Shown here piece by piece: positions 9,072-32,758 of a DNA stretch of 37,801 nt. Source of the stretch: a virus; the IMG/VR virus record IMGVR_UViG_3300031730_000014, positions 1 through 37,801 of that record, one strand, 5' to 3'. How positions within the stretch are numbered: position 1 is the first letter of the stretch; every line of letters begins with the position of its first letter. Under the pieces are notes generated by a model. It did no database searches. It was not told where the DNA came from and worked only from the letters and a program-made list of their open reading frames with translations. Position numbers and translations under genes: made by a program.

Positions 9072-9088
9072 GTGAGGGCGGGGCGGGG

Positions 9089-9322: not shown

Positions 9323-9332
9323 GAGGCTCCTT

Positions 9333-10300: not shown

Positions 10301-10313
10301 GGCGTCCCCCCTT

Positions 10314-13508: not shown

Positions 13509-13543
13509 CCGTGCACCCCTTCACCAGGGCAGCCCCGGCCCGC

Positions 13544-17474: not shown

Positions 17475-17484
17475 GGGTGTGCTC

Positions 17485-17994
17485 CTATTCGAGGCGGCGC
17501 CGCACGTCGTCGAGGACGCGGGCCACCTCTCGTTCCATACGGGGGGTGTGGTTGCGGACGGTGCGGTCCCACCACAGAGGCGTGGCGTTCTGCTGCGCCC
17601 ACCGGCGCCGGTTGCCGAATACGGGGTGGCGGATGCGGCCGGTGTTGATGGCGGCCGGCATGCCCTTCAGGTCGGTTGGCAGGCGGCTCTTGTCGATCCA
17701 CACGGTGGCGCCCGGCCGGGACCCGGTACGCACGCTGATACGGATCGCGTCGGCGATCGTCGCCCGCATGGGACGCGTCGTCGGTGACGGGCCGCCCCGC
17801 CGCCCGGCACTGCGGCCCTGGGAGCTGATGTCGAGGTTGCGGATGGTGTCTTGGAGGTCGTCGCGCAGGGGCTCGGCGGCCCGCCTGATCCTGCGCTGCA
17901 TCGAGCTGCGGATGTTCTCGCCACCGGCAGCGCGCAGGCGCCGCTGCAGCTCCAGCAGGCTGCCGGTGTTGAGGATCCGTACATCGCGCGTCAC
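17485..17994 (-). CDS. HK97 gp10-family-like head-tail/tail completion protein
   Basis: 169 aa. ...LLELQRRLRAAGGENIRSSMQRRIRRAAEPLRDDL...GRIRHPVFGNRRRWAQQ... resembles gp10-family proteins of actinobacterial prophages. The family call is from memory. Confidence 0.5.
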   Translation of the reverse strand: MTRDVRILNTGSLLELQRRLRAAGGENIRSSMQRRIRRAAEPLRDDLQDTIRNLDISSQGRSAGRRGGPSPTTRPMRATIADAIRISVRTGSRPGATVWIDKSRLPTDLKGMPAAINTGRIRHPVFGNRRRWAQQNATPLWWDRTVRNHTPRMEREVARVLDDVRRRLE

Positions 17995-18001
17995 GGCAGG
18001 C

Positions 18002-18988
18002 TCACAGCGTGACGTCGGTCGACATGTACTCGATCTTCGGCTGGTTTGTGCCGTCGTACAGGCCGGTGAAGTTGAAGCTCGGCTTCACGACACCGAACCC
18101 GTCGACGACGGGCGGACCCTCGTCGAGGCGGATCGCGGGCAGGATGATGCGGAACGTCTCGAAGTACGTCGACGCGATCAGCGGGCCGATGAACTCCCAC
18201 ACCAGACTGGTCGCCCCGTCGCTGGTGTGCAGGTCATCCAGGGTCGTGGCGACGTAGTCCGACTCCAGCGTGCCGGTGATCTTGACCTGGTCGTTCTCGA
18301 TCGGCTCCTTCTTGAGAGCCGACTGGTTGGCGTAGAAGCGCTCGACGTCCTGAGGCCGCTCGATCTTGCAGGACACCTTGCGGATCCCGTCGAGCGCCGT
18401 CTCCGTACCGAACGCGCCGGTCTTGAGCGCCATCTGGCCGAAGTGGAACGGCGACATGTTCGAGTAGCTGGCGACCGCCAACGTCTGGCCCTCGTCGCAG
18501 TCCTTGCCGTCGATCTCGAACGTACCGGTGAGCATCTCGCCCACGCCGCACGCGAACTCACCCGACGTGATCTTGCAGCCCAGAAAGGTCTTGTCGGTCA
18601 CCGTGCCGGTCGTGAGTGGCACGCCCTTCTGGATCGTCAGGCTCTTGCCCGCGACCGACGCCAGGGTGTGAGTCTGCAGGTACGCGGTCGTCGCCGCCTG
18701 CTGGACGGGCGTGACCGTCGTGCCCATCAGCGTCTGCAGGATCAGCCCCATCCCCTTGTTGGAGATCTCCATTTCGAACGACCCGGAGACTTCCTTGCGC
18801 GTGAGGACGCGCCGTGCTGACAGCGGCAGCAGACGACCGGCCGCGATGCCCGCGCTCTGGGCCGTGGTCTTCTTGAGGACCAGCGATTCCTTGGTGAACT
18901 CGATGAACTTGGACGACGCCGTGAAGGTGCCGTAAGCCGACTCGGCCGCGATGCCCATCTGGGCGCCGAGCCCGGATCCGATCGCCAT
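18002..18988 (-). CDS. Major tail (tail tube) protein
   Basis: 328 aa, beta-rich, ATG after GAAGGAGGG. It lies upstream of the chaperone/tape-measure block. Sequence MAIGSGLGAQMGIAAESAYGTFTASSKFIEFTKESL... Confidence 0.7.
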   Translation of the reverse strand: MAIGSGLGAQMGIAAESAYGTFTASSKFIEFTKESLVLKKTTAQSAGIAAGRLLPLSARRVLTRKEVSGSFEMEISNKGMGLILQTLMGTTVTPVQQAATTAYLQTHTLASVAGKSLTIQKGVPLTTGTVTDKTFLGCKITSGEFACGVGEMLTGTFEIDGKDCDEGQTLAVASYSNMSPFHFGQMALKTGAFGTETALDGIRKVSCKIERPQDVERFYANQSALKKEPIENDQVKITGTLESDYVATTLDDLHTSDGATSLVWEFIGPLIASTYFETFRIILPAIRLDEGPPVVDGFGVVKPSFNFTGLYDGTNQPKIEYMSTDVTL

Positions 18989-18991
18989 GGA

Positions 18992-19216
18992 TCAGCCCTC
19001 CTTCTGCGGCGCCGACTTGGCCGCGGTCTTCTTCAGCGGCGCCTGCGGCGCCTGCTCGTCCTTGGGCTCCTCGACGCCCTCCCACGTGCCGGACTGGCAC
19101 ACGTAGCCGTCGAAGCGCTCGTCGGGCACCTCCACGACCTCGTCGGGATGCACCTCGCGGCCGCCGAGCTCCGGCACGGTTACCGGCTCGGGCCCGATGT
19201 AGCGCACACGCGCCAT
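18992..19216 (-). CDS. Hypothetical structural-region protein (74 aa)
   Basis: ATG after GAGGAG. Sequence MARVRYIGPEPVTVPELGGREVHPDEVVEVPDERFDGYVCQSGTWEGVEEPKDEQ... Confidence 0.6.
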   Translation of the reverse strand: MARVRYIGPEPVTVPELGGREVHPDEVVEVPDERFDGYVCQSGTWEGVEEPKDEQAPQAPLKKTAAKSAPQKEG

Positions 19217-19240
19217 CGCTTACTCCTCAAGTGGGTTGGA

Positions 19241-19705
19241 TCAGATACGGGCTCGGCAGGACACCGTGAACTGGACACCCGCCAGGGCGCCTTCGCTGAT
19301 GTTCTGCAGGAGGTTGCCGGTCGTGAGCTCTGCCCACAGCACGACGCCGCCGAGGTCCGGCGCCGTCGGGTTGGAGGCCGAGGCCCGAAGCGCCGTCTCG
19401 ACCTCGCCGACCAGGTCGAAGGCGTCACCGCGGCGGAACGACATGTCCTTGTCGCCGCCCCGCGATTCGGCGTAGCAGGAAATCGAGAACACCTCGTCGC
19501 GGGTACGGGCCCCCGCAGCGTTGAACTCCTGCTGCAGCTCCACGGACTGCTCGCCGCCCGGCACCCACCCGATGTGGATCCGGCGCCGGTTGGTCAGGTT
19601 CACCGCGGTCGGGCCGTCCACGATCGCCACCTCGGCGAGCGCGGGCCGTGCCCGCAGGATCGCCAGCAGCGCGTCAACGGCGGCCGGGACTCGGGACGTC
19701 TGCAC
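19241..19705 (-). CDS. Head-tail joining / tail terminator-like protein (154 aa)
   Basis: GTG at 19705 shares 1 nt with the upstream TAG (TAGTG). Sequence VQTSRVPAAVDALLAILRARPALAEVAIVDGPTAVNLTNRRRIHIGWVPGGEQ... The upstream part of the listed 281-aa ORF is junk. The function is inferred from position only. Confidence 0.5.
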   Translation of the reverse strand: MQTSRVPAAVDALLAILRARPALAEVAIVDGPTAVNLTNRRRIHIGWVPGGEQSVELQQEFNAAGARTRDEVFSISCYAESRGGDKDMSFRRGDAFDLVGEVETALRASASNPTAPDLGGVVLWAELTTGNLLQNISEGALAGVQFTVSCRARI

Positions 19706-20259
19706 TACGCCACCCCCGGCGGGACCTTGTACGGCTCCAGCAGCTGCAGGACCCGGTTGGGGATCGCGTAGCCCCAGCCCGGTGTGGGCTCGGTGACGTT
19801 GAAGTCGTCGCCGCCGCCGACCGAGGACAGGCCGCGTGATGCCCCGTACTGGGTGCGCCACAGGTGCTGCAGCAGGATGCGGGCGGCGAGGTTGATGGTG
19901 GCCGGTACGGTGCCCCTGCCGGCCGTGTAGGTGACGCGCCACAGGGTCCCGGTGAACGAGCCGCCCCGGTAGCGGACGATGCCGGTGGCCCCGTCCAGGA
20001 CGAGGTCGGCCACGTCGAGGGCGTCGCCGGTCTCGACGGCCGGTACCACCGACACCAGGGCGACGGCCGGGATGTTCGACAGGCACAAGGAGGCGCCGCG
20101 GCCCTCGATGGTCTCGGCGAACTCGCGGGTCTCGACCGGGCCGACGTGCCGTTCGATCGCCGCGGTGAGGGCGTCGACGTACACCTGCAGCTCGGCGTCT
20201 TCACTGGTGCCGTCGATGTCGAGCTGTGCCTTCGCCTCGGCGAGGGTGAGCAGCGCCAC
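19705..20259 (-). CDS. Head-tail connector (gp6-like) protein
   Basis: GTG after GGGAGG. The N-terminal ALLTLAEAKAQLDIDGTSEDAELQVYVDALTAAIERHVG is the classic gp6-like head-tail connector motif. Confidence 0.7.
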   Translation of the reverse strand: MALLTLAEAKAQLDIDGTSEDAELQVYVDALTAAIERHVGPVETREFAETIEGRGASLCLSNIPAVALVSVVPAVETGDALDVADLVLDGATGIVRYRGGSFTGTLWRVTYTAGRGTVPATINLAARILLQHLWRTQYGASRGLSSVGGGDDFNVTEPTPGWGYAIPNRVLQLLEPYKVPPGVA

Positions 20260-20271
20260 GGGTGCCTCCCG

Positions 20272-20520
20272 CTACTTGCCGTCGAGCGTGGACTTCGTCA
20301 TGGGCTTGCGGCGGCCGGTCGCCTTCTCCGGCTCGCCCGGCGCGGTTGCGGTCTCCTCCGGGGCGTCGCCGCTCTCGTCGCCGTCGGTGTCTTCGGTGGC
20401 GAGGCCGCCCGCGATCATCTGCTTGGCCTCGTCGTCGGGCAGGTCCACGCTGTTGCCCCGGTCCGGCCAGGGCTGGCCGTCGCGAGTGCCAGAGATCGTG
20501 ACCTTCATACGAACACGCAT
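20272..20520 (-). CDS. Hypothetical head-region protein (82 aa)
   Basis: ATG at 20520 after GAGAGGAAA. Sequence MRVRMKVTISGTRDGQPWPDRGNSVDLPDDEAKQMIAGGLATEDTDGDESGD... Confidence 0.6.
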   Translation of the reverse strand: MRVRMKVTISGTRDGQPWPDRGNSVDLPDDEAKQMIAGGLATEDTDGDESGDAPEETATAPGEPEKATGRRKPMTKSTLDGK

Positions 20521-20581
20521 TGCTGTTTCCTCTCGGGCCAAAGGGCGGCCACCGGCCGGTGGCCGCCCGGATACGGACGGA

Positions 20582-21796
20582 TCAGGACGCGCCGCCGACG
20601 AAGACCTTGACCGCGCCGGTCTGGTCGATGAGCAGGCCGTCCGCGCGGATGATCGCCCGGAAGGTGACCAGGTCGGAGTTGAACGCGTAGTCGTCGGAAC
20701 GCTCGAAGCGCACCCCGCCCGCCAGGCGGACGAAGTACTGCGCGAAGTCACCGAACGCGACCGACTTCGCCGACAGTGCGGGCGCGGCCACGTTCGGGTC
20801 GGTGTGGACCGGCTTGCCCAGCAGCGTGTCCGGGGCGCCGACCTGGATGGACGGCTGCCACAGGTACTGCCCCTGCCCGTCCTTGAGCTTGCGTGCGGCG
20901 CCGAGAGTGGCGTCCCGCATCAGCCAGCCGCACGAGGTGCTGTTCCGGTACGGGGCGATGACCGAGTAGTACAGGTCGATCAGGTTGTCCGCGGTGAACG
21001 CACCCACCACGGCCGTGCCGCCGGTCACACCGGTCGAGGCGGAGGTGATGACACCGGTCGGCTTCGACGAGCCGTCACCGGTGATGGCGTGGACGCCGAA
21101 CGCGTTGCCCAGCGCCCGCCCGGCCTGCATCGCCAGGTAGCCCTCCAGGTCGACACCGGTGTCGGACAGCAGCTCGGACGACGCCTGCAGGAGAACGCCG
21201 TACTTGTACGCACCCAGAGTCCGCTTGGCGAACGCCGGGTCCGACTCCGAGATGGGTGCGGCCTCGGCGGTGAGCGCGGCGCTGGAGTGCGCCGTGGTCA
21301 CCGGGATCTCGATGCTCTCGCCGGACGCCGTGTTCAGCACGGTCGGCCCGGCCATCATGATCCCGGACACCTCGATGAGGTGCGCCATCAACTGGCCGTA
21401 GAACGTGGTCGGCACGGTGTTGCCGCCCGCCGTCGCGGTGCCCTTGACCAGGTCACGGAAAGCGACACCGTCAGGCTTGGCGATGTCGATGCCGCGCATC
21501 TCGCCGCGCGCCCAGCGCCGCAGCTCGGAGTCCTTGTCGCTCTTGCGCTCCTGCTCCTGCGGCTTGGCGAGCAGCCCGGCGAACGCAGCCTCGGCGTCCT
21601 TGGTGCGCTGCTCCGCCTCGACCAGGTCCTTGGCCCGCTGGTCCATCTTGTCGAGGTCGGCGTTGAAGGCCTGGTACTTGGCCTCCTCCTCCGCCGTCAG
21701 ATCCCGCTTCTCCTTCTCGGCCGTGTCGAGCAGCTCCTTGGCCTGCTCCCACACGTTGGCGCGGCGCTCCTGCAGCGCCTTGATGAACGAACTCAC
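20582..21796 (-). CDS. Major capsid protein, HK97 fold
   Basis: GTG after AGGAGGG. The N-terminal coiled-coil delta-like domain (RDLTAEEEAKYQAFNADLDKMDQRAKDLVEAEQR) is followed by a capsid body. The gene follows the prohead protease. Confidence 0.9.
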   Translation of the reverse strand: MSSFIKALQERRANVWEQAKELLDTAEKEKRDLTAEEEAKYQAFNADLDKMDQRAKDLVEAEQRTKDAEAAFAGLLAKPQEQERKSDKDSELRRWARGEMRGIDIAKPDGVAFRDLVKGTATAGGNTVPTTFYGQLMAHLIEVSGIMMAGPTVLNTASGESIEIPVTTAHSSAALTAEAAPISESDPAFAKRTLGAYKYGVLLQASSELLSDTGVDLEGYLAMQAGRALGNAFGVHAITGDGSSKPTGVITSASTGVTGGTAVVGAFTADNLIDLYYSVIAPYRNSTSCGWLMRDATLGAARKLKDGQGQYLWQPSIQVGAPDTLLGKPVHTDPNVAAPALSAKSVAFGDFAQYFVRLAGGVRFERSDDYAFNSDLVTFRAIIRADGLLIDQTGAVKVFVGGAS

Positions 21797-21884
21797 GTCG
21801 CCCTCCTGGGCATGACGAAGGCACCCGCAAGCCGGTGGCCGGGGCGCCAGGTGGATGGTGTGTCGAGGTGGGTTTCGCCCTGCC

Positions 21885-22559
21885 TCAGAAGGTGCGGCGA
21901 CTCATGAGCTCGGCTCGCCGCTGCCGTACCGCCATGACCGGGTGGGGGTCGCCCTGCCCAGTCGGCGGAATGATCGTGGGGGCCGGGGCCCCGAGGAACC
22001 GCTTCAGCTCGCCCGCCTCGGCCGCGGCCCGCACCTCGGCCAGCTCGGCGCCGGCCTTCTCCGCCAGAGAGCGCAGCCCCGTCGAAGTGTCCAGGTAAGC
22101 CGGATCGTTGACCGGGGCCACGTCGACCAGCTGCCCGGACAGCAGCGTCCGCACAGGGAAGCCGTCGTCCGTCATCGACCAGTCGTCCTCGAACGTGAAG
22201 AACGCGAACGACGACTCGGTGACGTCGCCGCGCTGCACCAGCTCGTACACGTCACCGCGGGCCGCGGGCACGTCGACGCTGTAGTCCAGCCCCGTACCGT
22301 CCGTCTGTAGCCGCAGCGTGCCCGCACGGGAGGTGCCCAGCAGCATGTTGTTGTCGTGGTTGTAGCGGGCCATCACACGCGGCCAGCCGTCCCCCTCGGA
22401 CTTCGCGAAGAACCCGGGGTCGATGCGCTCGACAAACCCGCCAAGGTTGCGGGACAGCGTGTTGAACTTCGCCGCGTACCCGCCGATCGTCCTGCTATCG
22501 CCGGCCGCCCGGACCTCCACGAGGCCGCGCGTGAACCGACGCTCACTGTCGCCGTTCAT
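21885..22559 (-). CDS. HK97-family prohead protease
   Basis: ATG at 22559 overlaps the portal stop. MNGDSERRFTRGLVEVRAAGDSRTIGGYAAKFNTLSRNLGGFVERIDPGFF...ARYNHDNNMLLG...GDVTESSFAF matches the S78/U35 protease pattern. The track ORF extension to 23699 is spurious. Confidence 0.88.
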   Translation of the reverse strand: MNGDSERRFTRGLVEVRAAGDSRTIGGYAAKFNTLSRNLGGFVERIDPGFFAKSEGDGWPRVMARYNHDNNMLLGTSRAGTLRLQTDGTGLDYSVDVPAARGDVYELVQRGDVTESSFAFFTFEDDWSMTDDGFPVRTLLSGQLVDVAPVNDPAYLDTSTGLRSLAEKAGAELAEVRAAAEAGELKRFLGAPAPTIIPPTGQGDPHPVMAVRQRRAELMSRRTF

Positions 22560-23704
22560 CACTTCTCGCTTTCGTCGCGGGCCACCTTGCCCAGTGGCGC
22601 GTAGTCCTTGCCCAGACCGTTGGGCAGGGGCGGTTCGTCTTCCATCCGGCGCAGCTCGTCGATGTTGTGCAGGCCGATCGCCCGGGAGATCCGGTGGGCC
22701 TGGTAGCGGGTGAGGGTGTCGGTGCGGAGCATCGCGTCCGCGTTGAACCGGGCCTCTTCCGTGGGAGGGCGCAGCAGCGAGAACGCGTCCTCCAGGCGGG
22801 CGAGCCACGGGCGCAGCGTCCACGTCAGGAGGTCGATGCTGTTCTGCTCGACCGTGGCGTAGGTGAGGCTGCCGCCCGTCTCGCCGCCGACCTTCTCCGG
22901 CGGCACGCCGTAGATTGCGGCGATCTGGTTCGCGGTCGCCTTGATGGTCTCCAGGAACTGCGACTCGTTGGCCGGCACCGAGATGGCCCGGTACTTCACG
23001 CCGTTGCCCAGCGCGACCACGTCGCGGCCCTGGGCAGCTTCCTTGAAGCGGGCCTTCAGGATCGTCGCCGCGTCCCGGTCGACGACCATGTCCGTCTCCA
23101 GGACCGCGCTCGGGGTGGAGCCGTTGGCGAACCAGTCCCGCCCGAACTGGTTGGCCAGCAGCCCGGCCTCCGTCGTCGTCGCGAAGTACGCGATCGGCGA
23201 CAGCCCGAGGATCTGCCCGGGCACCGTGTACGCGGGGACGTGAAACATCTGCCCGTCCTCGAGACGGCGGCCCTTGTAGTACCAGACCGGCACCGCAGCG
23301 AGGTTGTCCTCGATGTGGACGTCGTCCGGGTGGAGCCACTCGATCTGGGACGGCCAGCCGTCCGGGCCCCAGGCGACGATCAGCCCGTAGGCGTTGCCGC
23401 GCAGCGTCAGCGACGTCATGCACCGGTGCAGCCAGTCGTAGCGCGTACCGACCGCGCTCGGGCGGCGGAACAGCGGGGGCACCGGGGCCCGCAGCCGGTC
23501 CTCTCCGTCCGCCCGGTAGGACTTCAGCGGCAGGGACGCCACCGAGTCCGCCAGCAGCCGCGTGGCCGCGTACACGGGCCCCAGCCGCAGCGCCCGTTCC
23601 TGGCTGCCGCCGCGCAGTACGGCTGGGTCCGAGCCCGAGCCCCACACGTCCTGGTACGAGATCGCCCGCTTCAGCGCCGTTCGACGGAAGGGCCACCACC
23701 TCAT
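22559..23704 (-). CDS. Portal protein (HK97 family)
   Basis: 381 aa, lying between the large terminase and the protease. Sequence ...LGPVYAATRLLADSVASLPLKSYR...NAYGLIV...WLHPDDV... Confidence 0.88.
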   Translation of the reverse strand: MRWWPFRRTALKRAISYQDVWGSGSDPAVLRGGSQERALRLGPVYAATRLLADSVASLPLKSYRADGEDRLRAPVPPLFRRPSAVGTRYDWLHRCMTSLTLRGNAYGLIVAWGPDGWPSQIEWLHPDDVHIEDNLAAVPVWYYKGRRLEDGQMFHVPAYTVPGQILGLSPIAYFATTTEAGLLANQFGRDWFANGSTPSAVLETDMVVDRDAATILKARFKEAAQGRDVVALGNGVKYRAISVPANESQFLETIKATANQIAAIYGVPPEKVGGETGGSLTYATVEQNSIDLLTWTLRPWLARLEDAFSLLRPPTEEARFNADAMLRTDTLTRYQAHRISRAIGLHNIDELRRMEDEPPLPNGLGKDYAPLGKVARDESEK

Positions 23705-23717
23705 TTCGTCACCCTTC

Positions 23718-25256
23718 TCACCACACGCTGCTCAGAATGTCTCCGGACCGCTTGTCCTCCACCTCGGCGCCGAGGCCCCACTTGGCTTCCGTCGCCGCGA
23801 CCAGGGGGCTGATATCGACGGAGACGATCCGCCGGGCCCACGCCCACGAGTCACCGAGCGTCCGTTTCTGCGCACCCGCCAGCGCCGACGCCAGCGGCGC
23901 CTCGTCGAAGTGGGTCAGCGACTGGTCGGCGACAGCGTCGTAGAACTGGCCGCAGGCCGCCGCCATCTCCCGGGCCTTGGGCTTGACCACCTCGACGCCC
24001 AGGCCGTCGTCCTCGTCCTCCAGATCGTCGATGAGGGAGCCTGCAGCGCTGGCCGGATCGACCACCCAGCAACGCGGCTCCCACTTGGCGTGCAGCTCCT
24101 TGGCGCGCTCCACGACCCAGCCCACGCCGGGCCGGTGGTCGACCACCGTGACGTGCACACCGCCCCGCCAGGGGAACGCTGCGCAGATCGCCGCGTGCGA
24201 CCGCTCCGGGGTGACGTCGATGGCGAACGCCACCGTCCCCGACCGCTCGGCGTCTGTGACCGCCAGGGCCCGCCAGGCTTCCTCGCCGATGACCTGCCAG
24301 GTGGCCGCCTGGTCGGACGGGTAGTCGCCGACCCCGAGCCGCTCACGGGCGTACAGGGCGTCGCCCATCGTCAGCCTCCGGTGCATGCTCTTCTCGACTT
24401 GGAGCCGGTAGCCGACGGCCGGGTTCGCCTTCAGCAGCGACGCGACGGAGTCGATGTCGTCGTGCTCCGTACAGCCACGCGGGCACTCAGCCAGGTGCGG
24501 GGTGATGGACCACTCGAAGTACGCCAGGACCGGATCCAGCGTGCCGCTCTCCAGCGCGGCCATGGCCCGGGCCCGCAGCCGCCCCAACTGCTGCGACGGG
24601 GCGCCGATGCCTGCGCTGCCGAGGAACCACAGCTGACTGTTCTCGACGGCCTCCGTCGTCGGCGCGAGGGCCGACATGGAGTCGTCGCCGAGAATCATGC
24701 ACTCGTCGAAGATGACGCAGTCCGAGGTGAAGCCACGGCCGGAGCCGCGGGAGCGGGCGATGTACTTCAGCTCCCGCCCGTCATGCAGCTCGATGCCCTC
24801 GCGGCCTACCGTCTTGTGGTACGCCTTGACGCGTTTATGCAGGTCAGGGCATCCGCGGATGAGGCGCTCGATGCGCTTCATCGTGTTCATCGTGGTTTTG
24901 AACTCGTGAGCCGACAGCAGGATCTGCTTCTCGCCACCGATGAACAGGCCCCACAACACGCGGGCCTCGATCACTCCGCCCTTGCCGTTCTGGCGCGGCA
25001 GGTTAATCGCGACCTCGGGCGCCGACCAGGAACCGTCCGGCTTCTCGCCCATCCCGACGCGCAGGATGTGCTGCTGCCACGGATCCAGCTTCAATCCCGC
25101 GCGCGCGGCAAGGTCGATAGCCTCCTGGCCGGCGCTCGACACCGACGGCGGCGCAGTCTCGATCGGCGGCTTCTGCCAGCCGTAGACCGGCTCGTCAGCC
25201 GGTGGACTGCTCACGGGCTGCGGCTCGGCGCTTCTCTCGCTGCTCAGCAATGTCAT
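23718..25256 (-). CDS. Terminase large subunit
   Basis: 512 aa. The sequence ...DPWQQHILRVGMGEKPDGSWSAPEVAINLPRQNGKGGVIEARVLWGLF...FDECMILGDD... carries ATPase Walker-like motifs, followed by a nuclease half. The gene is directly upstream of the portal. Confidence 0.9.
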   Translation of the reverse strand: MTLLSSERSAEPQPVSSPPADEPVYGWQKPPIETAPPSVSSAGQEAIDLAARAGLKLDPWQQHILRVGMGEKPDGSWSAPEVAINLPRQNGKGGVIEARVLWGLFIGGEKQILLSAHEFKTTMNTMKRIERLIRGCPDLHKRVKAYHKTVGREGIELHDGRELKYIARSRGSGRGFTSDCVIFDECMILGDDSMSALAPTTEAVENSQLWFLGSAGIGAPSQQLGRLRARAMAALESGTLDPVLAYFEWSITPHLAECPRGCTEHDDIDSVASLLKANPAVGYRLQVEKSMHRRLTMGDALYARERLGVGDYPSDQAATWQVIGEEAWRALAVTDAERSGTVAFAIDVTPERSHAAICAAFPWRGGVHVTVVDHRPGVGWVVERAKELHAKWEPRCWVVDPASAAGSLIDDLEDEDDGLGVEVVKPKAREMAAACGQFYDAVADQSLTHFDEAPLASALAGAQKRTLGDSWAWARRIVSVDISPLVAATEAKWGLGAEVEDKRSGDILSSVW

Positions 25257-25473
25257 CGACCGAGTCCCCCTTCACTTCGACGGGGGCCAGGCGGCGCAGG
25301 TCAGCCATGATCGGGCGCAGCTTGTCAGCCAGGACGGCCTTCGCGGTGGGGGCATCCGTCTCATCCATGGCCTTCGCGAGGTCCCGGGCGACGGCCGCCA
25401 TGCCGGGGGAGGTCTCGCCCGCGTGAAGGTCGTCGAGTTCGGCGGCGATGTCGTCGGCAACCGACATGATCAC
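25195..25473 (-). CDS. Terminase small subunit candidate (92 aa)
   Basis: It lies directly upstream of, and overlaps, the large terminase gene. Sequence MIMSVADDIAAELDDLHAGETSPGMAAVARDLAKAMDETDAPTAKAVLADKLRPIMADLRRLAP... resembles actinophage small terminases. Confidence 0.55.
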   Translation of the reverse strand: MIMSVADDIAAELDDLHAGETSPGMAAVARDLAKAMDETDAPTAKAVLADKLRPIMADLRRLAPVEVKGDSVDDIAEQREKRRAAAREQSTG

Positions 25474-25603
25474 CCCCGGTCATCACGCACCGTCACGGGC
25501 GGCGGTTCGCTAAACCACTGGCGCCGACGCCGACGGAATAGCGGCCGCCCACTAAATCGCTGGTCTCCGCTTCGCCGGATCAGGGCTTTGGAAATCGCCG
25601 CGC

Positions 25604-25638
25604 AAAAAATCGGGCGACAAGGGCGTTTGGGTCGCCCG
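25604..25638 (-). terminator. Rho-independent terminator ending the early/middle operon
   Basis: On the minus strand, CGGGCGAC-loop-GTCGCCCG (25611-25638) is followed by ATTTTTTG (25603-25610). It lies 33 nt after the stop of CDS 25671..26108. Confidence 0.75.
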
Positions 25639-25670
25639 GGAAGGCCTCTAAAAAGGGGCCGGGCTCTTGA

Positions 25671-26108
25671 TCACCACTCCAGTGTCCGGCCGGCCGTCGG
25701 GGTCCGGGTGGCGGCCGGCCGCTGCCGGTACCAGCGGGTGGCGACCCGTTTCATCTCGGGGTCGCGCATGGCTTCGATGCGCTGCATCACGATGGTGCGC
25801 CCGGGGTCGACGGCGATGACCTTGGCGTCCATGCGCTTGTACCGGGCGAGCCACTTGGGGCTGGGATTGGTGTGGATCAGGTAGACATCGACCTTGTCGC
25901 GGTGCTCGAACGCCTCGTACATGGCGGCGTACCGGGCCTTGTGGGCGACGCGCAGCAGTGTCGGGTCCTGGTTCCACTGCGGGGCGCCGGGTCCGGCGAG
26001 CGCGCGGGTGATGCGGTCGAGGTCGATGACCACGTCGTTGGGCTTGGCGTGCGCGTCGATCCAGCTGGTCTTGCCGGAGGCCGGCGGGCCGGTGACGACG
26101 TACAGCAC
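25671..26108 (-). CDS. P-loop NTPase (AAA/kinase-like ATP-binding protein)
   Basis: GTG start. The Walker A motif GPPASGKT lies at the N-terminus: MLYVVTGPPASGKTSWIDAH... Confidence 0.75.
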   Translation of the reverse strand: MLYVVTGPPASGKTSWIDAHAKPNDVVIDLDRITRALAGPGAPQWNQDPTLLRVAHKARYAAMYEAFEHRDKVDVYLIHTNPSPKWLARYKRMDAKVIAVDPGRTIVMQRIEAMRDPEMKRVATRWYRQRPAATRTPTAGRTLEW

Positions 26109-26112
26109 GGCG

Positions 26113-26394
26113 TCACCACCTCAGCTGAGGGCGCTGGCGTACCACCTTCGGTGTGGTGGTGCGGTTGCCGCGGCTGCTGTTGCACTTCCGATGCGCGGGC
26201 CGGGCGTTAGCCGGGTCGAGCAGGTTGCCGCCCTTGGACAGCGGCTGCTCGTGGTCGAGGGTGAAGGACAGAGGGTGCTTGGCGTTCAGCTCGTACCCGA
26301 TGTTGTGGCCGCAGATCCAGCAGGGCAGGCGCTGGGCTCGGAGCCAGGCGCAGAGTCGGCGGTAGGGGCGCCCGTTGCGTGGGTTGCCGGCCAC
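26113..26394 (-). CDS. HNH endonuclease
   Basis: GTG after GGGAGG. It contains CWICGHNI...LDHEQPLSKGGNLLDPANARPAHRKCNSSRG (H-N-H with a Cys zinc site). It lies near the terminase genes, as in HK97-like cos phages. Confidence 0.88.
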   Translation of the reverse strand: MAGNPRNGRPYRRLCAWLRAQRLPCWICGHNIGYELNAKHPLSFTLDHEQPLSKGGNLLDPANARPAHRKCNSSRGNRTTTPKVVRQRPQLRW

Positions 26395-27792: not shown

Positions 27793-27878
27793 GAGCTCAT
27801 CCTCTCGTACCGATGTCGCCTGTGGGGCCTATCGGATCACCGCGTTCGGGGGCAGGTTGAGGGCTCGGCGGGAGGGCC

Positions 27879-27968
27879 CGAAACTCGAAACTTGGCAGGT
27901 GGGGGCCGATATCGGGGGCGAAACCGGTTTCGGATCAAGGCGAAACCACACCCTTGATCCGAAACCGG
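27879..27968. repeat. CGAAAC repeat cluster with nested palindromes (candidate clt / TraB recognition locus)
   Basis: CGAAAC starts at 27879, 27886, 27919, 27941 and 27960, with an inverted copy at 27927-27932. Perfect palindrome CGAAACCGGTTTCG at 27919-27932. Inverted repeat GGATCAAGG (27932-27940) / CCTTGATCC (27952-27960). The cluster ends 12 nt from the stop of the translocase gene. Confidence 0.5.
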
Positions 27969-27979
27969 CTCGGCGGCCC

Positions 27980-30103
27980 CTATTCGCCGTCCTCGACGGC
28001 AGGGAGATCGGCGTAGCGGAGGCCCTTGGCGCCGCCGCAGCACTCCCGGATCGTCAGCTGCTTGGTGGAAACCTTGAAGGGCTTCAGCGCGGCGCTGAGG
28101 GCCGTCGACGAGCCTGCGGCATCCAGCTCCAGCCACTGCTTGTACAGGTCGGCCCGGTAGGCGGCGAGGGCCTCGACGAGCCGGTGGGAGTGCACAGCCT
28201 CGACACCGTCCGGCCAGACCGCCCGCAGGTGGTCGACGACCGTCTCGACGTCCTGCTCTTCGACCGCGGCACCGACGGCCTGTCCGGTGAGGGTGCCGGC
28301 CGCGGTGCGCAGTGCGAGGGCCCGCTTCCCGATGTCCTCGGCTTCGGTCTGCTTGATGAACGCGGCGCGGACGGTGATGCCTTCGCGGCCGCGGGCGAGG
28401 ATGCCGGTGCCCTGTTCGTCGACGCTGATGTCGGTGGCGCGCAGGCCGCGGTCGTAGGCGCCGGTGCCTAGGACGTTGTTGTTGGCTCGCCAGTCCATGA
28501 CGGCCAGGCACAGACGGGTGCCGACTGACGAGGAGACGCCGGTGGGCAGGGACGGCGCGTCCGGGTTCTGGGTGAGCAGGATGAGGATGATGCCGTAGGC
28601 GCGGCCCTTCTTGATGAGGCGGGTGGCCAGGGCGGCGGCCTCGTCCTTGTAGTCGGCGTGGGTGAAGAGTTCCTGGACCTCGTCGATGACGATGACGCGC
28701 GGGCCGAGGTTCTGTTCCGGGTACTTCTCAGCCAGCGCGCGGGTGACCTTGCGGCCCTCGGGGACCTCGCTGGACGGCAAGGACTTGATGAACTTGGCGC
28801 GCCGCTGGTACTCGGCGATCCCGGAGCGCATGCCGCCGAGGGCGGCCTCCAGGTCCTCGTCTTCGTCGCCGGAGACGTAGCGGTGGCAGACGGGGCGGAC
28901 GGAGTCGAGGTCGCCGGATCCCTTGAGCTCGAAGATCCACAGTTCGGCGGTGGGGTCGAGGGCGACTCCGAGGACGATGGCGAGGGCGCAGGAGGTCTTG
29001 CCGGAGCCGGGGATGCCTCCGACCAGGAGGTTTGAGTACATGAGGGTGATCTCGACGAGGTTGCCGCGCGGGTCGAAGCCGTAAGGCAGCGGCTCGTACA
29101 CGTCGGCCTGGCCGTCCTTCATCAGCGGCCACAGCTTGCGGGCGGCCTTCGCGGGGTCGCGCTGCGCCACCCACAGGACGAGGCGTCCGGGATGCGCGGT
29201 GCGGTCGCCCTCAAGCCACACGGTGCTGATGGGGCGGCGCATGGCGGCGGCGAGCGCGGCCCGCTTCTCCAGGACGGCGCTGGCCTCGATGCCGGGGGGC
29301 AGGTCGACCTCGGCTCGCCAGCCGGGCCCGTCGCGCATGACCTCGGAGGCGAACTCGGTTCCCTTCTTGCCCTTCTTGCCTTCGATGCCGATTGCGGCGA
29401 GCGCGTCGAGGACCTCGGTGGAGTCGAGGCGGCGCAGGACGTTGGTGGCGACGTAGCGGGTGATCAGCGGCTTCCCGTCGCTCTTCTTGCCGTTGAGGCC
29501 GACAAGGGTGGCCGCGGTGAGCGTCGCGGTGAGCGTCCAGCCGGGGGCCAGGAAGCAGCCGGCCAGCGTGGTGATGCCGGTGGTCGTGGCGACCGCCAGG
29601 GAGGCGATACGGCGTGGCCGGACGCGGCGGGAGTGCTCGCGGGACAGCGTGATCCAGGCGTCGATGTCCGCGGACGCGGCGGCCTTGGCTTCGACGGGTC
29701 GGGCCTCGGTGTCCGCGACCCACTTGCCCCAGCGGAGAACCATGCGGGCGAGGCCGCGGGGCGCGCGGGTGAGCAGGCGCAGGGCGTAGACGGGCAGGCG
29801 GATGGCGTGGAAGGCGGTGACGTGGCCGTAGTACGACGCGGTCCAGCGGGCGGCGTTGACGAACTCGGCGGCGTTGCGCAGGAACGTGGGGACGACGGGC
29901 GGGGCGTCGGCGAGGTACGCCTGCTTCTCCGCGATCCAGGTGCCTGCGGGCGGGGCCTGCTCGGGCGGGTCGACAGGACGCGGCTCGGCGTTCTGGACGA
30001 CGTCGATGATGGTCTGCTTCAGGTCCGCGTCCTGGACGTCCTCGCTATCCGGCGGGGGCGTCCTGGGGGCGTCCTTGTGGAGCTGTACGACGTTGTTCGT
30101 CAT
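27980..30103 (-). CDS. FtsK/SpoIIIE-family DNA translocase, TraB-like
   Basis: 707 aa. Hydrophobic N-terminal segments (IASLAVATTTGITTLAGCFLAPGWTLTATLTAATLVGL), Walker A GGIPGSGKTS, Walker B PRVIVIDEVQELF, LLTQNP, and a C-terminal helical domain. Confidence 0.9.
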   Translation of the reverse strand: MTNNVVQLHKDAPRTPPPDSEDVQDADLKQTIIDVVQNAEPRPVDPPEQAPPAGTWIAEKQAYLADAPPVVPTFLRNAAEFVNAARWTASYYGHVTAFHAIRLPVYALRLLTRAPRGLARMVLRWGKWVADTEARPVEAKAAASADIDAWITLSREHSRRVRPRRIASLAVATTTGITTLAGCFLAPGWTLTATLTAATLVGLNGKKSDGKPLITRYVATNVLRRLDSTEVLDALAAIGIEGKKGKKGTEFASEVMRDGPGWRAEVDLPPGIEASAVLEKRAALAAAMRRPISTVWLEGDRTAHPGRLVLWVAQRDPAKAARKLWPLMKDGQADVYEPLPYGFDPRGNLVEITLMYSNLLVGGIPGSGKTSCALAIVLGVALDPTAELWIFELKGSGDLDSVRPVCHRYVSGDEDEDLEAALGGMRSGIAEYQRRAKFIKSLPSSEVPEGRKVTRALAEKYPEQNLGPRVIVIDEVQELFTHADYKDEAAALATRLIKKGRAYGIILILLTQNPDAPSLPTGVSSSVGTRLCLAVMDWRANNNVLGTGAYDRGLRATDISVDEQGTGILARGREGITVRAAFIKQTEAEDIGKRALALRTAAGTLTGQAVGAAVEEQDVETVVDHLRAVWPDGVEAVHSHRLVEALAAYRADLYKQWLELDAAGSSTALSAALKPFKVSTKQLTIRECCGGAKGLRYADLPAVEDGE

Positions 30104-30140
30104 GCTGGGGGCTTCCTGCCTCTTGATGGGGTACGGGACG

Positions 30141-30183
30141 CCCGGGGACGGCGGCTGCTTGGCGGTAGGACGCCGTCCCCGGG
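30141..30183 (-). terminator. Hairpin (terminator/attenuator) immediately upstream of the translocase gene
   Basis: Perfect 13-bp stem CCCGGGGACGGCG (30141-30153) / CGCCGTCCCCGGG (30171-30183) with a 17-nt loop, in the 86-nt gap. Confidence 0.45.
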
Positions 30184-30189
30184 GTGTAG

Positions 30190-30525
30190 CTACTGGTAGC
30201 GGCGCAGCTCGCGCTCGACGCGGCGGGCGGCGGCCTCGTGGTCGTTCATCTGCCGGCGGGCGGCGGCGCGTTCGGGACCGCGGCTGGTGCGCATGGTGGC
30301 CTTGGCTGACGCGGCAGCGTTGCGGGCCTCGTTCAGGCGGCGCTCAAGGGCCTGCACCTCGCGGGCGCCTCGGTCGGCGGCCCGCTTCTCGATGCGGTCG
30401 GCCTCCCGCTTGACCTTCGGGTCGATGGTGTCGTCGTTGCGGTCACCCGCCATCGACTGCTTGCCGGCCTTGGCGACCAGGACGGCCAGGCGGAGCCTCT
30501 CGCGGGTGGTGTACGAGCTGGGCAT
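30190..30525 (-). CDS. Hypothetical basic coiled-coil protein (111 aa)
   Basis: ATG start. Sequence ...KVKREADRIEKRAADRGAREVQALERRLNEARNAAASAKATMR... Confidence 0.6.
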   Translation of the reverse strand: MPSSYTTRERLRLAVLVAKAGKQSMAGDRNDDTIDPKVKREADRIEKRAADRGAREVQALERRLNEARNAAASAKATMRTSRGPERAAARRQMNDHEAAARRVERELRRYQ

Positions 30526-30528
30526 GGG

Positions 30529-30735
30529 TCAGACTCCCGTCTGGATTTCGGGCAGGGTGGCGGCGATGGCGGTGTAGGCGCGGGAGGTGTCCGCCCACGC
30601 GGCGGCGGCTGCAGCGAGCTGCGGCACCCTGCCCTGGCTGTCGCCGTTGTCGGCGGCGTTCTCGACTTTCCCGGCGTACACCTTGGCGTTGCGGGCGGCG
30701 TTGATGGCCTCATTGAGGGCCTGCTGACGATTCAT
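30529..30735 (-). CDS. Hypothetical small helical protein (68 aa)
   Basis: ATG after AGGAGGAA. Sequence MNRQQALNEAINAARNAKVYAGKVENAADNGDSQGRVPQLAAAAAAWADTSRAYTAIAATL... Confidence 0.6.
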   Translation of the reverse strand: MNRQQALNEAINAARNAKVYAGKVENAADNGDSQGRVPQLAAAAAAWADTSRAYTAIAATLPEIQTGV

Positions 30736-30754
30736 GGGTACGGGTTCCTCCTGG

Positions 30755-31096
30755 TCAGTGGGTGTTGCGGAAGTCGCGCCACATCGAGCGCAGGACGAGC
30801 AGGCAGCAGGTCGCGCAGGTGGCGCCGATGGCGACGGCGATGGAGGCGAGGGCGAACGCGACGGCGAGGACGCTGGCCGCGCCGGCGCCGACGATGGCGA
30901 GGCCGCCGATCGTCCACCACTTCTTCGCGTCGAACTGGGGCTGCGTCTGGTGGTCGTGCTGGCAGTGATGCTGTGGCTGCTGCTGGGCGGCTTTGGCCAG
31001 TTCCAGCGCGGCCATCGCGACCTGTACGACGCCGGTGTTGGACTCGGCCTGGACGACGGCGGCCTCCGCCTTGTCGAGCGGGGTGAGGTCGCTCAT
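30755..31096 (-). CDS. Membrane protein (113 aa; Spd-like candidate)
   Basis: ATG at 31096 with an ATGA overlap. The C-terminal hydrophobic segments are WWTIGGLAIVGAGAASVLAVAFALASIAVAIGATCATCCLLVL. Confidence 0.6.
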   Translation of the reverse strand: MSDLTPLDKAEAAVVQAESNTGVVQVAMAALELAKAAQQQPQHHCQHDHQTQPQFDAKKWWTIGGLAIVGAGAASVLAVAFALASIAVAIGATCATCCLLVLRSMWRDFRNTH

Positions 31097-31269
31097 CGCG
31101 TCCACCCCCGGATGTGGCGGCTGATGCGCGGCCACGCGATGACGCCGGCCGCGAACGCGAGGACGGCGGGCTGCGAGACGAGCCCGGCAACGACGGCCAG
31201 GACGAGGGCGAGGAGCGTCGGGTACGCGACGAGGAGGCCGAGGACGGCGCCGAACAGGATGCGCATCAT
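31093..31269 (-). CDS. Small membrane protein (58 aa)
   Basis: ATG at 31269 with an ATGA overlap onto the upstream stop. Sequence MMRILFGAVLGLLVAYPTLLALVLAVVAGLVSQPAVLAFAAGVIAWPRISRHIRGWTR. The listed 336-aa ORF is an over-extension. Confidence 0.55.
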   Translation of the reverse strand: MMRILFGAVLGLLVAYPTLLALVLAVVAGLVSQPAVLAFAAGVIAWPRISRHIRGWTR

Positions 31270-32039
31270 GACGGCACCGCCTCGTAGTCGGGGAGCTCGT
31301 CCTCGTGGAAGAGGTTGCGTCCTCCGATGCCTTTGCGGTGGACGGTGAGGCGTCCTGAGGCGACCCAGGAGCGGACGGTGGACATCTCGATGCCGTACTT
31401 CGCGGCGACCTGGGCGGAGTTGAGGAGGGGCGGTTGGGGCGGGATCTGGTTCGCTTCCGCCCAGTCGTCCTCGGCGTCCTGGTCCGTCCCGGGCGGGAGT
31501 TCGGGCGTCCCGTCGGCGTCCTGCTCGTCGAGCCGTTCGAGAGTGATCTCGTCGGTCGACAAGGGGTCGGCCTGACCCTCTGTCGCTACCTCGGGGACGC
31601 TCGGGACGGCTGGAGACGCCGGGGCGTCCTCGGCGTCGTGCGCCAGGCGCTCGTGCAGCTGCCGCATGAGGGCGCCGAACGCTACGAGTGCGGCGGAGGG
31701 CGGGACGGCGGCCACGATGTACTCCATCGGGTCGGCCCCGTATCCGACGCCCGCGACGTTCAGTGCGATCGAGCCGAGGGACCCGAATGCGGCGAGGGCG
31801 ACGGCCCACCAGTCCATGCCGCGGCGGGCCAGCGACGCGCGGAGGATGAGGAGTTCCCCGGCGACGATGAACAGGTCGACGGTGGCGGGCCAGGCCCAGG
31901 CGCGGGCGCCGTCGAGGCCGTTGTCGTCGGCGATGTCGTGGAGGTGTTCGTAGGACAGCCAGAAGGCGGCTGCGGTGAGCAGGATGGTGACGGTGGCTGC
32001 GCCGACGGCGAGGCCGTCGCGGGCGTTGATACGGCTCAT
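31266..32039 (-). CDS. DUF2637-like polytopic membrane protein with a C-terminal HTH (SpdA-type spread protein candidate)
   Basis: The N-terminal half is LAVGAATVTILLTAAAFWLSYEHLHDIADDNGLDGARAWAWPATVDLFIVAGELLILRA...WAVALAAFGSLGSIALNVAG, followed by an acidic linker. The C-terminal LLNSAQVAAKYGIEMSTVRSWVASGRLTVHRKG is an excisionase-type HTH. Confidence 0.75.
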   Translation of the reverse strand: MSRINARDGLAVGAATVTILLTAAAFWLSYEHLHDIADDNGLDGARAWAWPATVDLFIVAGELLILRASLARRGMDWWAVALAAFGSLGSIALNVAGVGYGADPMEYIVAAVPPSAALVAFGALMRQLHERLAHDAEDAPASPAVPSVPEVATEGQADPLSTDEITLERLDEQDADGTPELPPGTDQDAEDDWAEANQIPPQPPLLNSAQVAAKYGIEMSTVRSWVASGRLTVHRKGIGGRNLFHEDELPDYEAVPS

Positions 32040-32758
32040 CGGCCTTCACCTCGCAGGCGGGCGAGCTCGGCGATGGCGCGGTCGAGGCGGGCGGACGCGA
32101 CACGAATGGCGCGGGTGAGGTGCCGGCCGTCCTCCGGGTCGACGGAGGCGTCGAGGTCGAGGGCGACGTACAGGACGGGGTGGGGCTCGGGCTGCTGTAC
32201 GGCGTGGGGTGCGTGGGTGATGCAGCCGTGCATGACCTCGATCTCGCCGTGGCTGGCGGTGATGGCGGTCGCGGTGATGGGCGGCCCGTTGTGGGTGACG
32301 TCGGCGAGGCGGCCGACGGTGTCGTCGCCGTGGCCGATGCACCAGACGGGCTCGTCGACGGTGACCTCGCCGTGGTCGCTGGTCTGCAGCGTGACGGTGC
32401 CGTCCCTGTAGCGGGGGTCCTGCGCCAGGGGCGGGGCCGGGTCGCGCCGGGTGTAGGCGCGTTCGATGGCGGCGTCGATGGCGGCCAGCAGCTCGGGGGA
32501 GATGCGGGCGGTGGACGCTTCCTGCTCGGTGCCGATGACGGCTGCGGCGGCGAGGTAGCCCTCGACTTCGCGGCGGACGTCGAGGATGTCCAGCTCCGGA
32601 AGCGGCGGCTGGCCGGCCTGCTCGGCGTGGCCGATGGCGAGGGCGGCGCGCAGCTGCTCGCGGGAGACGACGAGGGAGATGTTGACCGTGGCGAACGCGT
32701 CCCAGTCGTCGTCGCAGGGGATCGGGTCGGTGGGTCCGAAGGCGGGCGGGGTGCTCAC
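32036..32758 (-). CDS. Hypothetical protein (240 aa)
   Basis: GTG at 32758 with a GTGA overlap. Sequence VSTPPAFGPTDPIPCDDDWDAFATVNISLVVSREQLRAALAIGHAEQ...VWCIGHGDDTVGRLADVTHNGPPITATAITASHGEIEVMHGCITHAPH... The upstream part of the listed 318-aa ORF is junk. Confidence 0.6.
   Translation of the reverse strand: MSTPPAFGPTDPIPCDDDWDAFATVNISLVVSREQLRAALAIGHAEQAGQPPLPELDILDVRREVEGYLAAAAVIGTEQEASTARISPELLAAIDAAIERAYTRRDPAPPLAQDPRYRDGTVTLQTSDHGEVTVDEPVWCIGHGDDTVGRLADVTHNGPPITATAITASHGEIEVMHGCITHAPHAVQQPEPHPVLYVALDLDASVDPEDGRHLTRAIRVASARLDRAIAELARLRGEGR

Follow-up and report, generated by a model that had tools for sequence, protein, structure and literature searches.

A candidate TraB/clt/Spd-type DNA translocation module in a family of temperate Streptomyces phages

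Can a tailed temperate phage carry, beside its virion genes, the machinery by which Streptomyces plasmids move double-stranded DNA (dsDNA) through mycelium? The question is raised by IMG/VR record IMGVR_UViG_3300031730_000014, of which positions 1 to 37,801 form the window, i.e., the whole stretch of 37,801 nucleotides analyzed here. A prediction made before any database search (the original prediction) had described a replicon that contains, in addition to phage genes, a translocase gene followed by a repeat cluster, a run of small proteins, a DUF2637-like membrane protein, and a distant GntR regulator; all of these parts were found where it had placed them. We favor, with modest confidence, the reading that the block around the translocase gene is a dsDNA translocation module of the TraB/clt/Spd type, which derives from plasmids or the integrative and conjugative elements of actinomycetes (AICEs) and is a regular part of a family of temperate siphophages of Streptomyces. 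This reading is directly supported by the homology and fold of the translocase, by the linkage, conservation, and clt-like position of the repeat site behind its gene, and by the layout of the operon. As a proposal from sequence, such phages may have a second way of spreading, in which their DNA passes through hyphae without the help of virions.

The translocase and the repeat site behind its gene

The translocase matches the Pfam family FtsK_SpoIIIE with 28.5 bits (cutoff 24) and the PHROG family phrog_1358 ("FtsK/SpoIIIE-like") with an E value of 3e-29, and it contains a Walker A motif (GIPGSGKT, residue 363) and a Walker B motif (VIVIDE, residue 470), in agreement with the FtsK/SpoIIIE assignment of the original prediction. 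In BLASTP, it is 31% identical to TraB of plasmid pSVH1 over 416 aa (2e-36, 133 bits), and the alignment spans the region preceding the motor, the motor itself, and part of the C terminus. A tblastn search of 72,556 plasmids returned 95 records, mostly from Streptomyces, with scores of up to 336 bits; the top matches were 41% identical over 84 to 87% of the length, and the best of them (87% of the length) belongs to an 18-kb AICE-like plasmid carrying GntR, NUDIX, DUF2637, Prim-Pol, and integrase genes. The classic Tra proteins of pSVH1, pSG5, and pFP11 were also among the matches. The scores against other ATPases of this kind are far lower, namely, 5e-7 (32 bits) for FtsK in the PDB, 7e-7 (28 bits) for EccC in NCBIfam, 6e-3 (14 bits) for the Escherichia coli-type FtsK profile PRK10263, and 4e-5 for the PHROG of the large terminase subunit (TerL). 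Judged by these search scores, the assignment of the protein to the Tra/TraB group of actinomycete plasmids and AICEs, and not to housekeeping FtsK, EccC, or packaging ATPases, is well supported, as had been expected. The NCBIfam profile "plasmid_TraB" was uninformative as a classifier, since pSVH1 TraB itself reaches 41 bits against a cutoff of 800. Against its Streptomyces relatives, the gene shows dN/dS values of 0.2 to 0.35, indicating purifying selection.

An AlphaFold (AF2) model of the translocase was calculated from a 72-sequence alignment, with a mean predicted local distance difference test (pLDDT) value of 76.6. In Foldseek searches, the model superposes on FtsK motor structures (E value of 6e-17, TM-score of 0.6 to 0.7), followed by TcpA, EccC, and HerA. 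The C-terminal domain adopts an H-b-H-H-H-b-b topology with a pLDDT of ~90 in the full model as well as in a separate prediction of the domain; its helices comprise residues 622 to 629, 639 to 649, 651 to 659, and 662 to 676, and its strands comprise residues 636 to 638, 681 to 685, and 690 to 696. The top Foldseek neighbors of this domain are almost all winged-helix DNA binders (TubR, Fur, PadR, BlaI, forkhead, MarR, and Orc/Cdc6). At the level of the predicted fold, the translocase thus ends in a winged-helix DNA-recognition domain of the TraB type. At the other end of the protein, the original prediction had proposed membrane segments. Long helices are indeed found at residues 147 to 203, but the hydrophobicity at residues 166 to 203 is moderate (Kyte-Doolittle values of 1.2 to 1.5), which is below the strict threshold for a transmembrane (TM) segment and equal to that of residues 246 to 277 of pSVH1 TraB.

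Directly 3' of the translocase stop codon lies a compact array of repeats (Table 1). Six of the 10 copies of GTTTCG/CGAAAC in the whole 37.8-kb window fall within 87 bp (positions 27879 to 27965), far above chance. We fetched 60 genome loci and 44 IMG/VR loci of related elements from Streptomyces, Actinacidiphila, Actinomadura, Spirillospora, and Nocardiopsis, and essentially all of them share one architecture. Read from the stop codon, it consists of GGTTTCG, a variable inner stem, a loop with GGTTTCA or GGTTTCG, the complementary inner stem, CGAAACCGGTTTCG, CCCCGATATCG, a spacer of about 15 nt, and GTTTCGrGTTTCG. All related loci (89 of 89), from five genera and including those whose translocase is only 50% identical, keep the site. 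In 85 of them, the densest GTTTCG cluster is no more than 120 bp from the stop codon; in the other 4, it is 313 to 545 bp away, behind an inserted small gene. The hairpin is preserved as a structure, with 90.4% of the cells paired and six pairs changed on both sides, a result reached in none of 500 shuffles and far above the slid controls; the sequence of its outer arms and of the extra copies does not vary. When IMG/VR was scanned for exact occurrences of CGAAACCGGTTTCGNCCCNGATATCG, 38 contigs were recovered, all 38 with the translocase gene alongside, and no orphan copy of the site. In loci L012, L015, and L027, a small extra gene or another hairpin separates the stop codon from the site, which is shifted by 313 to 545 bp and otherwise intact.

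The same position is occupied by repeats in characterized and related systems. In pSVH1, used as a positive control, five of the seven plasmid copies of the published TraB recognition sequence GACCCGGA follow directly after the traB stop codon, the inverted pair included, and in the AICE-like plasmid with 41% translocase identity, all five copies of CGATAGC do so. The occurrence of GACCCGGA, CGATAGC, and GGTTTCG at one position therefore indicates that each translocase clade has its own short repeat there. This matches clt as described in PMC4447253 and PMC3583192, where clade-specific short repeats lie at the 3' end of tra; the literature further describes that TraB binds 8-bp repeats in clt and that Spd proteins form a membrane complex with TraB. 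It is well supported by analogy that the repeat cluster behaves like a cognate clt, being always linked to the gene and lying where the experimentally defined clt of pSVH1 lies, and the clt-like character proposed for it was thus borne out. In the AICE-like plasmid (L002, NZ_CP107792), the five CGATAGC copies occur as CTATCGATAGC palindromes within 140 bp past the stop codon (positions 10097 to 10236), a stretch that is a candidate clt of that plasmid; CCCCGATAGCGG within this cluster resembles the CCCCGATATCGG box of the window site.

The upstream gene block and its phage genome

The genes upstream of the translocase gene encode a DUF2637 protein and four small proteins, two of them with TM segments (Table 1). 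The large membrane protein was confirmed as a four-TM DUF2637 protein with a C-terminal helix-turn-helix (HTH) domain, as predicted. Iterative hidden Markov models (HMMs) recovered each of the 58-, 113-, and 111-aa proteins from about 50 loci, with their order upstream of the translocase kept, and the slot of the 111-aa protein carries a precomputed DUF6257 assignment in L110 and L115. Genes overlap by 4 nt at 32036/32039 and 31266/31269; with a protein of about four TM segments and overlapping small membrane-protein genes next to tra, the block has the layout of Spd-type operons. In the slot of the large membrane protein, 45 loci have a DUF2637-type protein and 8 have a protein with a precomputed Pfam SpdB_N match, and some of these 8 carry TerL, portal, and capsid genes downstream. 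DUF2637 is also found directly upstream of the translocase in three divergent clades, represented by the replicon pPaSha2, the AICE-like plasmid, and Actinomadura loci with Prim-Pol.

The DUF2637 protein was considered as a homolog of SpdB2/SpdB_N and rejected as such: an iterative HMM seeded with SpdB2 recovered nothing, and hhalign against SpdB_N-like proteins gave a probability of ~1%. Likewise, SpdB2 of pSVH1 and the window proteins have no Pfam family in common (the local Pfam copy may lack PF27080). Because SpdB homology is not detected, the Spd assignment rests on position, topology, and association, and we make the weaker claim that the DUF2637-HTH protein is the positional counterpart of SpdB-type proteins. 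Of the Spd-like block originally proposed for positions 30190 to 32039, the operon layout and the SpdB_N proteins in the same slot of relatives thus hold up, but homology to Spd does not.

In the 86-nt gap between this block and the translocase gene, the window contains a second, GC-rich hairpin (Table 1), and 49 of 65 distinct loci have a perfect inverted repeat of 8 bp or more at its position, compensatory variants included. As an attenuator or terminator, this hairpin may gate translocase expression. According to PMC4447253, unregulated traB has been reported to be toxic.

A GntR/UTRA regulator of the HutC type, with the architecture of TraR/Kor proteins, is encoded in the window. Its identity is 27% to pSVH1 TraR and 31% to the GntR protein of L115, whose gene lies divergently upstream of the L115 tra operon. 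In the window, this gene and the module are 21 kb apart and on opposite strands; the gene lies at the late operon's far end, in the interval from the lysis genes to the integrase gene. A Kor-like GntR had been part of the original prediction; the gene is present, but it is distant and not divergent, and a Kor role is unsupported by its position. To our knowledge, an adjacent GntR repressor is common in the TraB-type family but is not part of its definition.

The window consists of one short-read metagenome contig from ENA with a base composition of 70% G+C, and, with coding frames chosen by third-position GC, almost every real gene lies on the minus strand. Positions 1 to 127 are identical to positions 37675 to 37801, so the contig closes as a circle of about 37.7 kb (unit length of about 37,674 bp). 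The gene set includes terminase, portal, protease, major capsid, tail, lysis, integrase, and repressor genes, as expected of a temperate tailed phage (Caudoviricetes); in profile searches, TerL matches phrog_9 at 7e-72 and the endolysin matches phrog_17214 at 1e-70. Judged from its genes, the replicon is a complete temperate-phage genome, so the circular replicon with virion, lysis, and integration genes was recovered as first described. The early operon starts near position 2100, runs across position 1, and encodes DUF2742, a D5-type primase, a single-stranded DNA-binding protein (SSB), and DUF6907. The transfer block forms its distal end, downstream of the CI-like repressor and directly ahead of the late genes. 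The same gene order is found in isolate genomes, e.g., that of S. scabiei ATCC 49173 (L022).

Relatives, known systems, and competing explanations

A protein search with the translocase gave 569 clusters at E < 1e-10. The best 120 of the 569 are all 83 to 100% identical and include many Streptomyces (among them S. scabiei 87.22, S. hygroscopicus 5008, and S. canus) and metagenome contigs of 34 to 42 kb. Across the fetched loci, the median translocase identity to the window is 85%, while portal and TerL, where detectable, are 32 to 34% identical. TerL lies 1.2 to 4.2 kb downstream of the translocase in 54 loci, 37 of which also have portal or capsid genes; 29 loci have no structural genes within 10 kb (these context counts include some contigs present in both locus collections). 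Among the 29 loci are every basal branch of the translocase tree (Nocardiopsis, Actinomadura, Spirillospora, and Streptomyces with 50% identity), some of them clearly AICE-like, and also a minority scattered inside the Streptomyces crown clade. The cassette, which is seen again in about 100 related elements, is thus found both in phage contexts and in loci without structural genes nearby. Most simply, temperate Streptomyces phages would have acquired a Tra/clt cassette of the AICE type, which would now be passed around among these phages and related elements. Three loci, L109 (S. argyrophyllae CP053189, positions 9481 to 9912), L114, and L115, have a translocase that is 84 to 89% identical together with the site and lack phage structural genes within 10 kb; in one of them, a NUDIX gene lies directly upstream of the translocase, and L109 and L114 have in common a downstream pair of DUF6879 and HTH_31/DUF5753 genes. 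Loci of this kind may represent either a separate type of small element or prophages in decay. A NUDIX gene (mdp) is carried by pSAM2 as well.

No match to the block was found by megablast among 50,697 phage genomes, and tblastn of the translocase against the same genomes returned solely Gilgamesh (27.6% identity over 44%) and one Staphylococcus phage. By this tblastn search, there is no close translocase homolog among these sequenced isolated phages. Gilgamesh shares with the window protein the FtsK/SpoIIIE ATPase fold and the family PHROG 1358, but it belongs to large lytic Streptomyces phages of ~130 kb.

The TraB/clt/Spd systems of pSVH1, pSG5, and pIJ101 resemble the module in several respects: a translocase that has the FtsK fold and a winged helix at its C terminus, short repeats in direct and inverted orientation directly 3' of its gene, overlapping small membrane-protein genes upstream that include one for a four-TM protein, and a GntR/UTRA regulator elsewhere on the replicon. 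Here, however, the module belongs to a complete tailed-phage genome, has GGTTTCG as its motif, and lies in a CI-controlled early operon; moreover, the four-TM protein is a DUF2637-HTH protein without detectable homology to SpdB2, and the GntR gene is not adjacent. With AICEs, the element shares integrase, replication, and Tra modules, DUF2637 upstream of Tra, a GntR gene, and, in some relatives, NUDIX; the nearest relatives of the translocase (41 to 64% identity) reside in AICE-like elements, and excision to circular dsDNA is implied. AICEs have sizes of 9 to 24 kb, lack virion and lysis genes, and replicate with RepSA, RepAM, or Prim-Pol, whereas the window unit has 37.7 kb, full morphogenesis and lysis gene sets, and a D5-type primase. 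Judged by its genes, with a serine integrase, D5 primase/SSB, and Tra but also a full head, tail, and lysis set, the element is partly AICE-like in its working and yet not an AICE.

Phage genes and transfer genes have been associated before. The Streptomyces plasmid-phage pZL12 (phage ZL12, GQ919031) combines tailed-phage genes, an FtsK/SpoIIIE-type tra gene, neighboring membrane-protein genes, and a GntR gene on one replicon, and its conjugal transfer needs a major tra gene (cited in PMC3583192). It is, however, a 90-kb extrachromosomal plasmid-prophage with ParAB, whereas the present element has 38 kb and is integrative via a serine integrase. Close kinship of the two Tra proteins was ruled out (24% identity over 145 aa to pZL12.71c, E value of 1e-3), and the translocases therefore represent different clades and independent captures. 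For phiC31 and VWB, SpdB2 homologs have been proposed to help spread phage DNA (excerpt of PMC4447253), so spread-type membrane proteins are encoded by these temperate Streptomyces phages too; the excerpt mentions no phage-borne translocase or clt, a comparison made by description, whereas both are present here. pPaSha2 of Pseudonocardia alni (CP052773, L001) is a circular replicon of 41.9 kb that resembles a phage, with genes for terminase, portal, protease, capsid, holin, and Bet, and it has overlapping DUF2637 and FtsK genes at positions 4807 to 7484, with a translocase that is 41% identical over 84%. It differs in genus, is deposited as a plasmid, and has its module on the strand opposite to the structural genes, and the GTTTCG site was not found in it. 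With pPaSha2, phage and Tra genes are thus seen together in a second genus as well. In the literature on DUF2637, on prophages with TraB, and on Streptomyces phage-plasmids, we found no account of a ~38-kb integrative prophage family with this cassette. The novelty claimed for a dual phage and transfer element is accordingly narrower than first put: the integrative family appears undescribed, but pZL12 and the SpdB2 homologs of phiC31 and VWB are precedents.

If the module works as we propose, induction or infection would lead to expression of the early operon, which begins in the CI-controlled region, continues with primase and SSB, and then encodes the DUF2637 protein, the small membrane proteins, and the translocase. 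A translocase hexamer would bind the GGTTTCG repeats of the 90-bp site on the circular ds phage genome through its C-terminal winged helix and would pump the genome across cross-walls or hyphal contact points into neighboring compartments or mycelia, with the DUF2637-HTH protein and the small TM proteins in the spreading or pore role of Spd. The serine integrase would then establish the prophage in the new compartment or recipient. Binding of the repeats, formation of a membrane pore, and any virion-independent transfer are thus what we infer. An active module would blur the boundary between virus and conjugative element in a multicellular bacterium, because a single genome could travel in virions from colony to colony and also be pumped as dsDNA within or between mycelia. 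It would also bear on how lysogeny is established across compartmentalized hyphae, on the dominance of conjugation in the gene flow of Streptomyces and the apparent rarity of transduction, and on module exchange between AICEs and phages. More tentatively, and with a doubt that outweighs our confidence, a large, so far uncultured family of temperate Streptomyces phages could possess a capsid-independent route based on a TraB-like motor acting on a GGTTTCG clt, and the elements that share the cassette could mobilize one another in trans. Such mobilization is conceivable because the hairpin-traB-clt cassette is nearly unchanged among otherwise unrelated prophages and AICE-like elements. Since a candidate protein, a predicted DNA-binding domain, and a 90-bp candidate site are defined, the proposed transfer is directly testable; lysogens exist in culturable strains, e.g., S. 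scabiei, and the conserved site and cassette provide a simple sequence marker for such elements.

Several points weigh against a transfer module. The N-terminal membrane anchor of the translocase is weakly predicted, and a Foldseek search with the isolated C-terminal domain gave no significant hit (best E value of 0.16). Similarity of the DUF2637 protein and the small proteins to characterized Spd proteins was undetectable by Pfam (possibly without PF27080), iterative HMM, and hhalign. DUF2637 and small membrane proteins also occur without a translocase in the isolated phages OnionKnight, Dubu, and phiSASD1, so DUF2637 may have a translocase-independent role. No TraR/Kor-type GntR gene adjoins the module in this element, and the site hairpin lies at the early/late boundary, where it could be a plain terminator. 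Finally, the loci were gathered via exact peptide words of the translocase, and close relatives are therefore overrepresented among them. In OnionKnight (L113, OQ938575), a DUF2637 gene followed by three genes for small membrane proteins occupies positions 5896 to 7770 at the right genome end, with no translocase, and such a membrane-protein block can therefore exist without a pump.

Among the rival explanations, it is rather unlikely that hairpin, traB, and clt form a selfish mobilization cassette or an AICE leftover that moves among AICEs and prophages without a role in the phage life cycle. The distribution of nucleotide similarity speaks for it: about 100 of 106 loci match over the translocase gene and its immediate flanks, at most 35 match elsewhere, and dS is 0.27 to 0.53 against Streptomyces relatives, with neighboring genes that cannot be aligned. 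Together with the dN/dS values, the low dS indicates that the high identity reflects recent shared ancestry, i.e., module exchange, plus purifying selection; extraordinary purifying selection as the source of the high protein identity is ruled out by the dS values. Loci with and without phage genes are also intermixed in the translocase tree, the basal relatives reside in AICE-like loci with Prim-Pol, and a few copies are truncated (e.g., L052 and L053). Nevertheless, the cassette keeps a constant slot and orientation, at the end of the early operon before HNH and terminase, in phages with differing structural modules, and the gene is intact and under purifying selection. Moreover, a cassette mobilizing its own replicon would in effect give the phage a second route, so that this explanation overlaps with the transfer module that we favor.

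We regard as improbable a role of the translocase in replication, segregation, or maturation as in FtsK, with the repeats as a KOPS/dif-like or partition site, or, alternatively, repeats that serve as a terminator plus late operator or as cos/pac. The site does sit where the early genes give way to the late ones, some 1.5 kb upstream of HNH/TerS/TerL and with an HTH_17 gene just downstream, its hairpin is structurally conserved, and the palindromes CGAAACCGGTTTCG and CGATATCG would fit a dimeric regulator. However, the site sequence stays constant when TerL and portal drop to ~30% identity or escape detection, as well as in loci without any late operon, by which cos/pac and a late operator are ruled out, while the FtsK-like role is countered by the nearest characterized relatives, which are conjugative Tra proteins and not FtsK, and by the clt defined experimentally at the same position in pSVH1. 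A slightly smaller chance is given to exclusion or defense, in which the prophage or early membrane proteins would block or expel incoming DNA, as entry exclusion of AICEs and plasmids or as superinfection exclusion. Membrane-protein blocks at such a position in temperate phages are often exclusion genes, the translocase-free phages named above fit such a function, and PHROGs places the translocase family in the category "moron, auxiliary metabolic gene and host takeover." Exclusion has no need, though, for a strictly coinherited multirepeat cis site on the phage's own genome, and the genes lie within the early lytic operon and not in an independently transcribed moron. That a metagenome misassembly joined an AICE to a phage is conceivable for a single short-read contig but has next to no probability here: the synteny of early genes, module, TerL, portal, and capsid is shared by many isolate genomes and by dozens of contigs of independent origin, which rules out a chimera.

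Feature coordinates and further observations

The features of the transfer module and of the phage genome around it are listed in Table 1.

Table 1. Positions of the module and of selected phage features in the window
Feature	Position	Strand	Remarks
TraB-like FtsK-fold dsDNA translocase	27980..30103	-	707 aa; moderately hydrophobic N-terminal helices, FtsK-type motor, predicted C-terminal winged helix (~620-700)
clt-like cis element	27879..27968	-	About 90 bp, directly 3' of translocase stop codon
Hairpin of clt-like element	27924-27940 / 27952-27968		17 bp; outer arms GGTTTCG/CGAAACC; loop bears further GGTTTCG
Palindrome CGAAACCGGTTTCG in clt-like element	27919-27932		
Palindrome CGATATCG in clt-like element	27907-27914		
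Tandem GTTTCGAGTTTCG in clt-like element	27879-27891		
GC-rich hairpin	30141..30183	-	13-bp perfect stem CCCGGGGACGGCG ... CGCCGTCCCCGGG, 17-nt loop; in 86-nt gap upstream of translocase start
Charged, probably helical protein	30190..30525	-	111 aa; directly upstream of translocase; DUF6257 E 0.006, below cutoff; in about 50 loci
Ala-rich soluble protein	30529..30735	-	68 aa
Protein with C-terminal two-TM segment	30755..31096	-	113 aa; detected in 48 loci
Two-TM hairpin membrane protein	31093..31269	-	58 aa; 4-nt overlap with both neighbor genes; 49 loci, 41-82% identity
DUF2637 four-TM protein	31266..32039	-	257 aa; acidic linker, C-terminal HTH_17; DUF2637 3.9e-16, HTH_17 7e-7
DUF6907 protein	32036..32758	-	6e-21; frequent neighbor upstream of module, seen in 49 loci
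CI-like repressor	2355..3230	+	HTH_31/HTH_3 plus HTH_25; divergent from early operon ending in transfer module
Large serine integrase	3227..4735	-	Resolvase 1e-33, Recombinase 9e-11
GntR/UTRA regulator (HutC type)	5962..6816	+	Architecture as TraR/Kor
Late region	7528..26394	-	Transcription order: HNH, TerS-like ATPase, TerL, portal, S78 protease, HK97 capsid
Late region, continued	within 7528..26394	-	Tail tube, tape measure, carbohydrate-binding module (CBM)/laminin-G tail protein, holin-like protein, endolysin

A 76-aa HTH_17/MerR-like gene is located at positions 27170 to 27400, just downstream of a DUF6221 gene, and its product may regulate late genes or bind DNA in association with TerS. 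Besides the translocase gene, the surrounding stretch (positions 27001 to 27500) is the sole one with nucleotide conservation in up to about 35 loci. A DUF6415 protein (3e-32) is encoded at positions 5211 to 5612, between the integrase and GntR genes. Two stretches have a lower G+C content of 0.62 to 0.63, compared with about 0.70: positions 2001 to 3000, which span the CI-like repressor gene and the divergent early promoter region, and positions 36001 to 37000, which lie inside the D5 primase gene.

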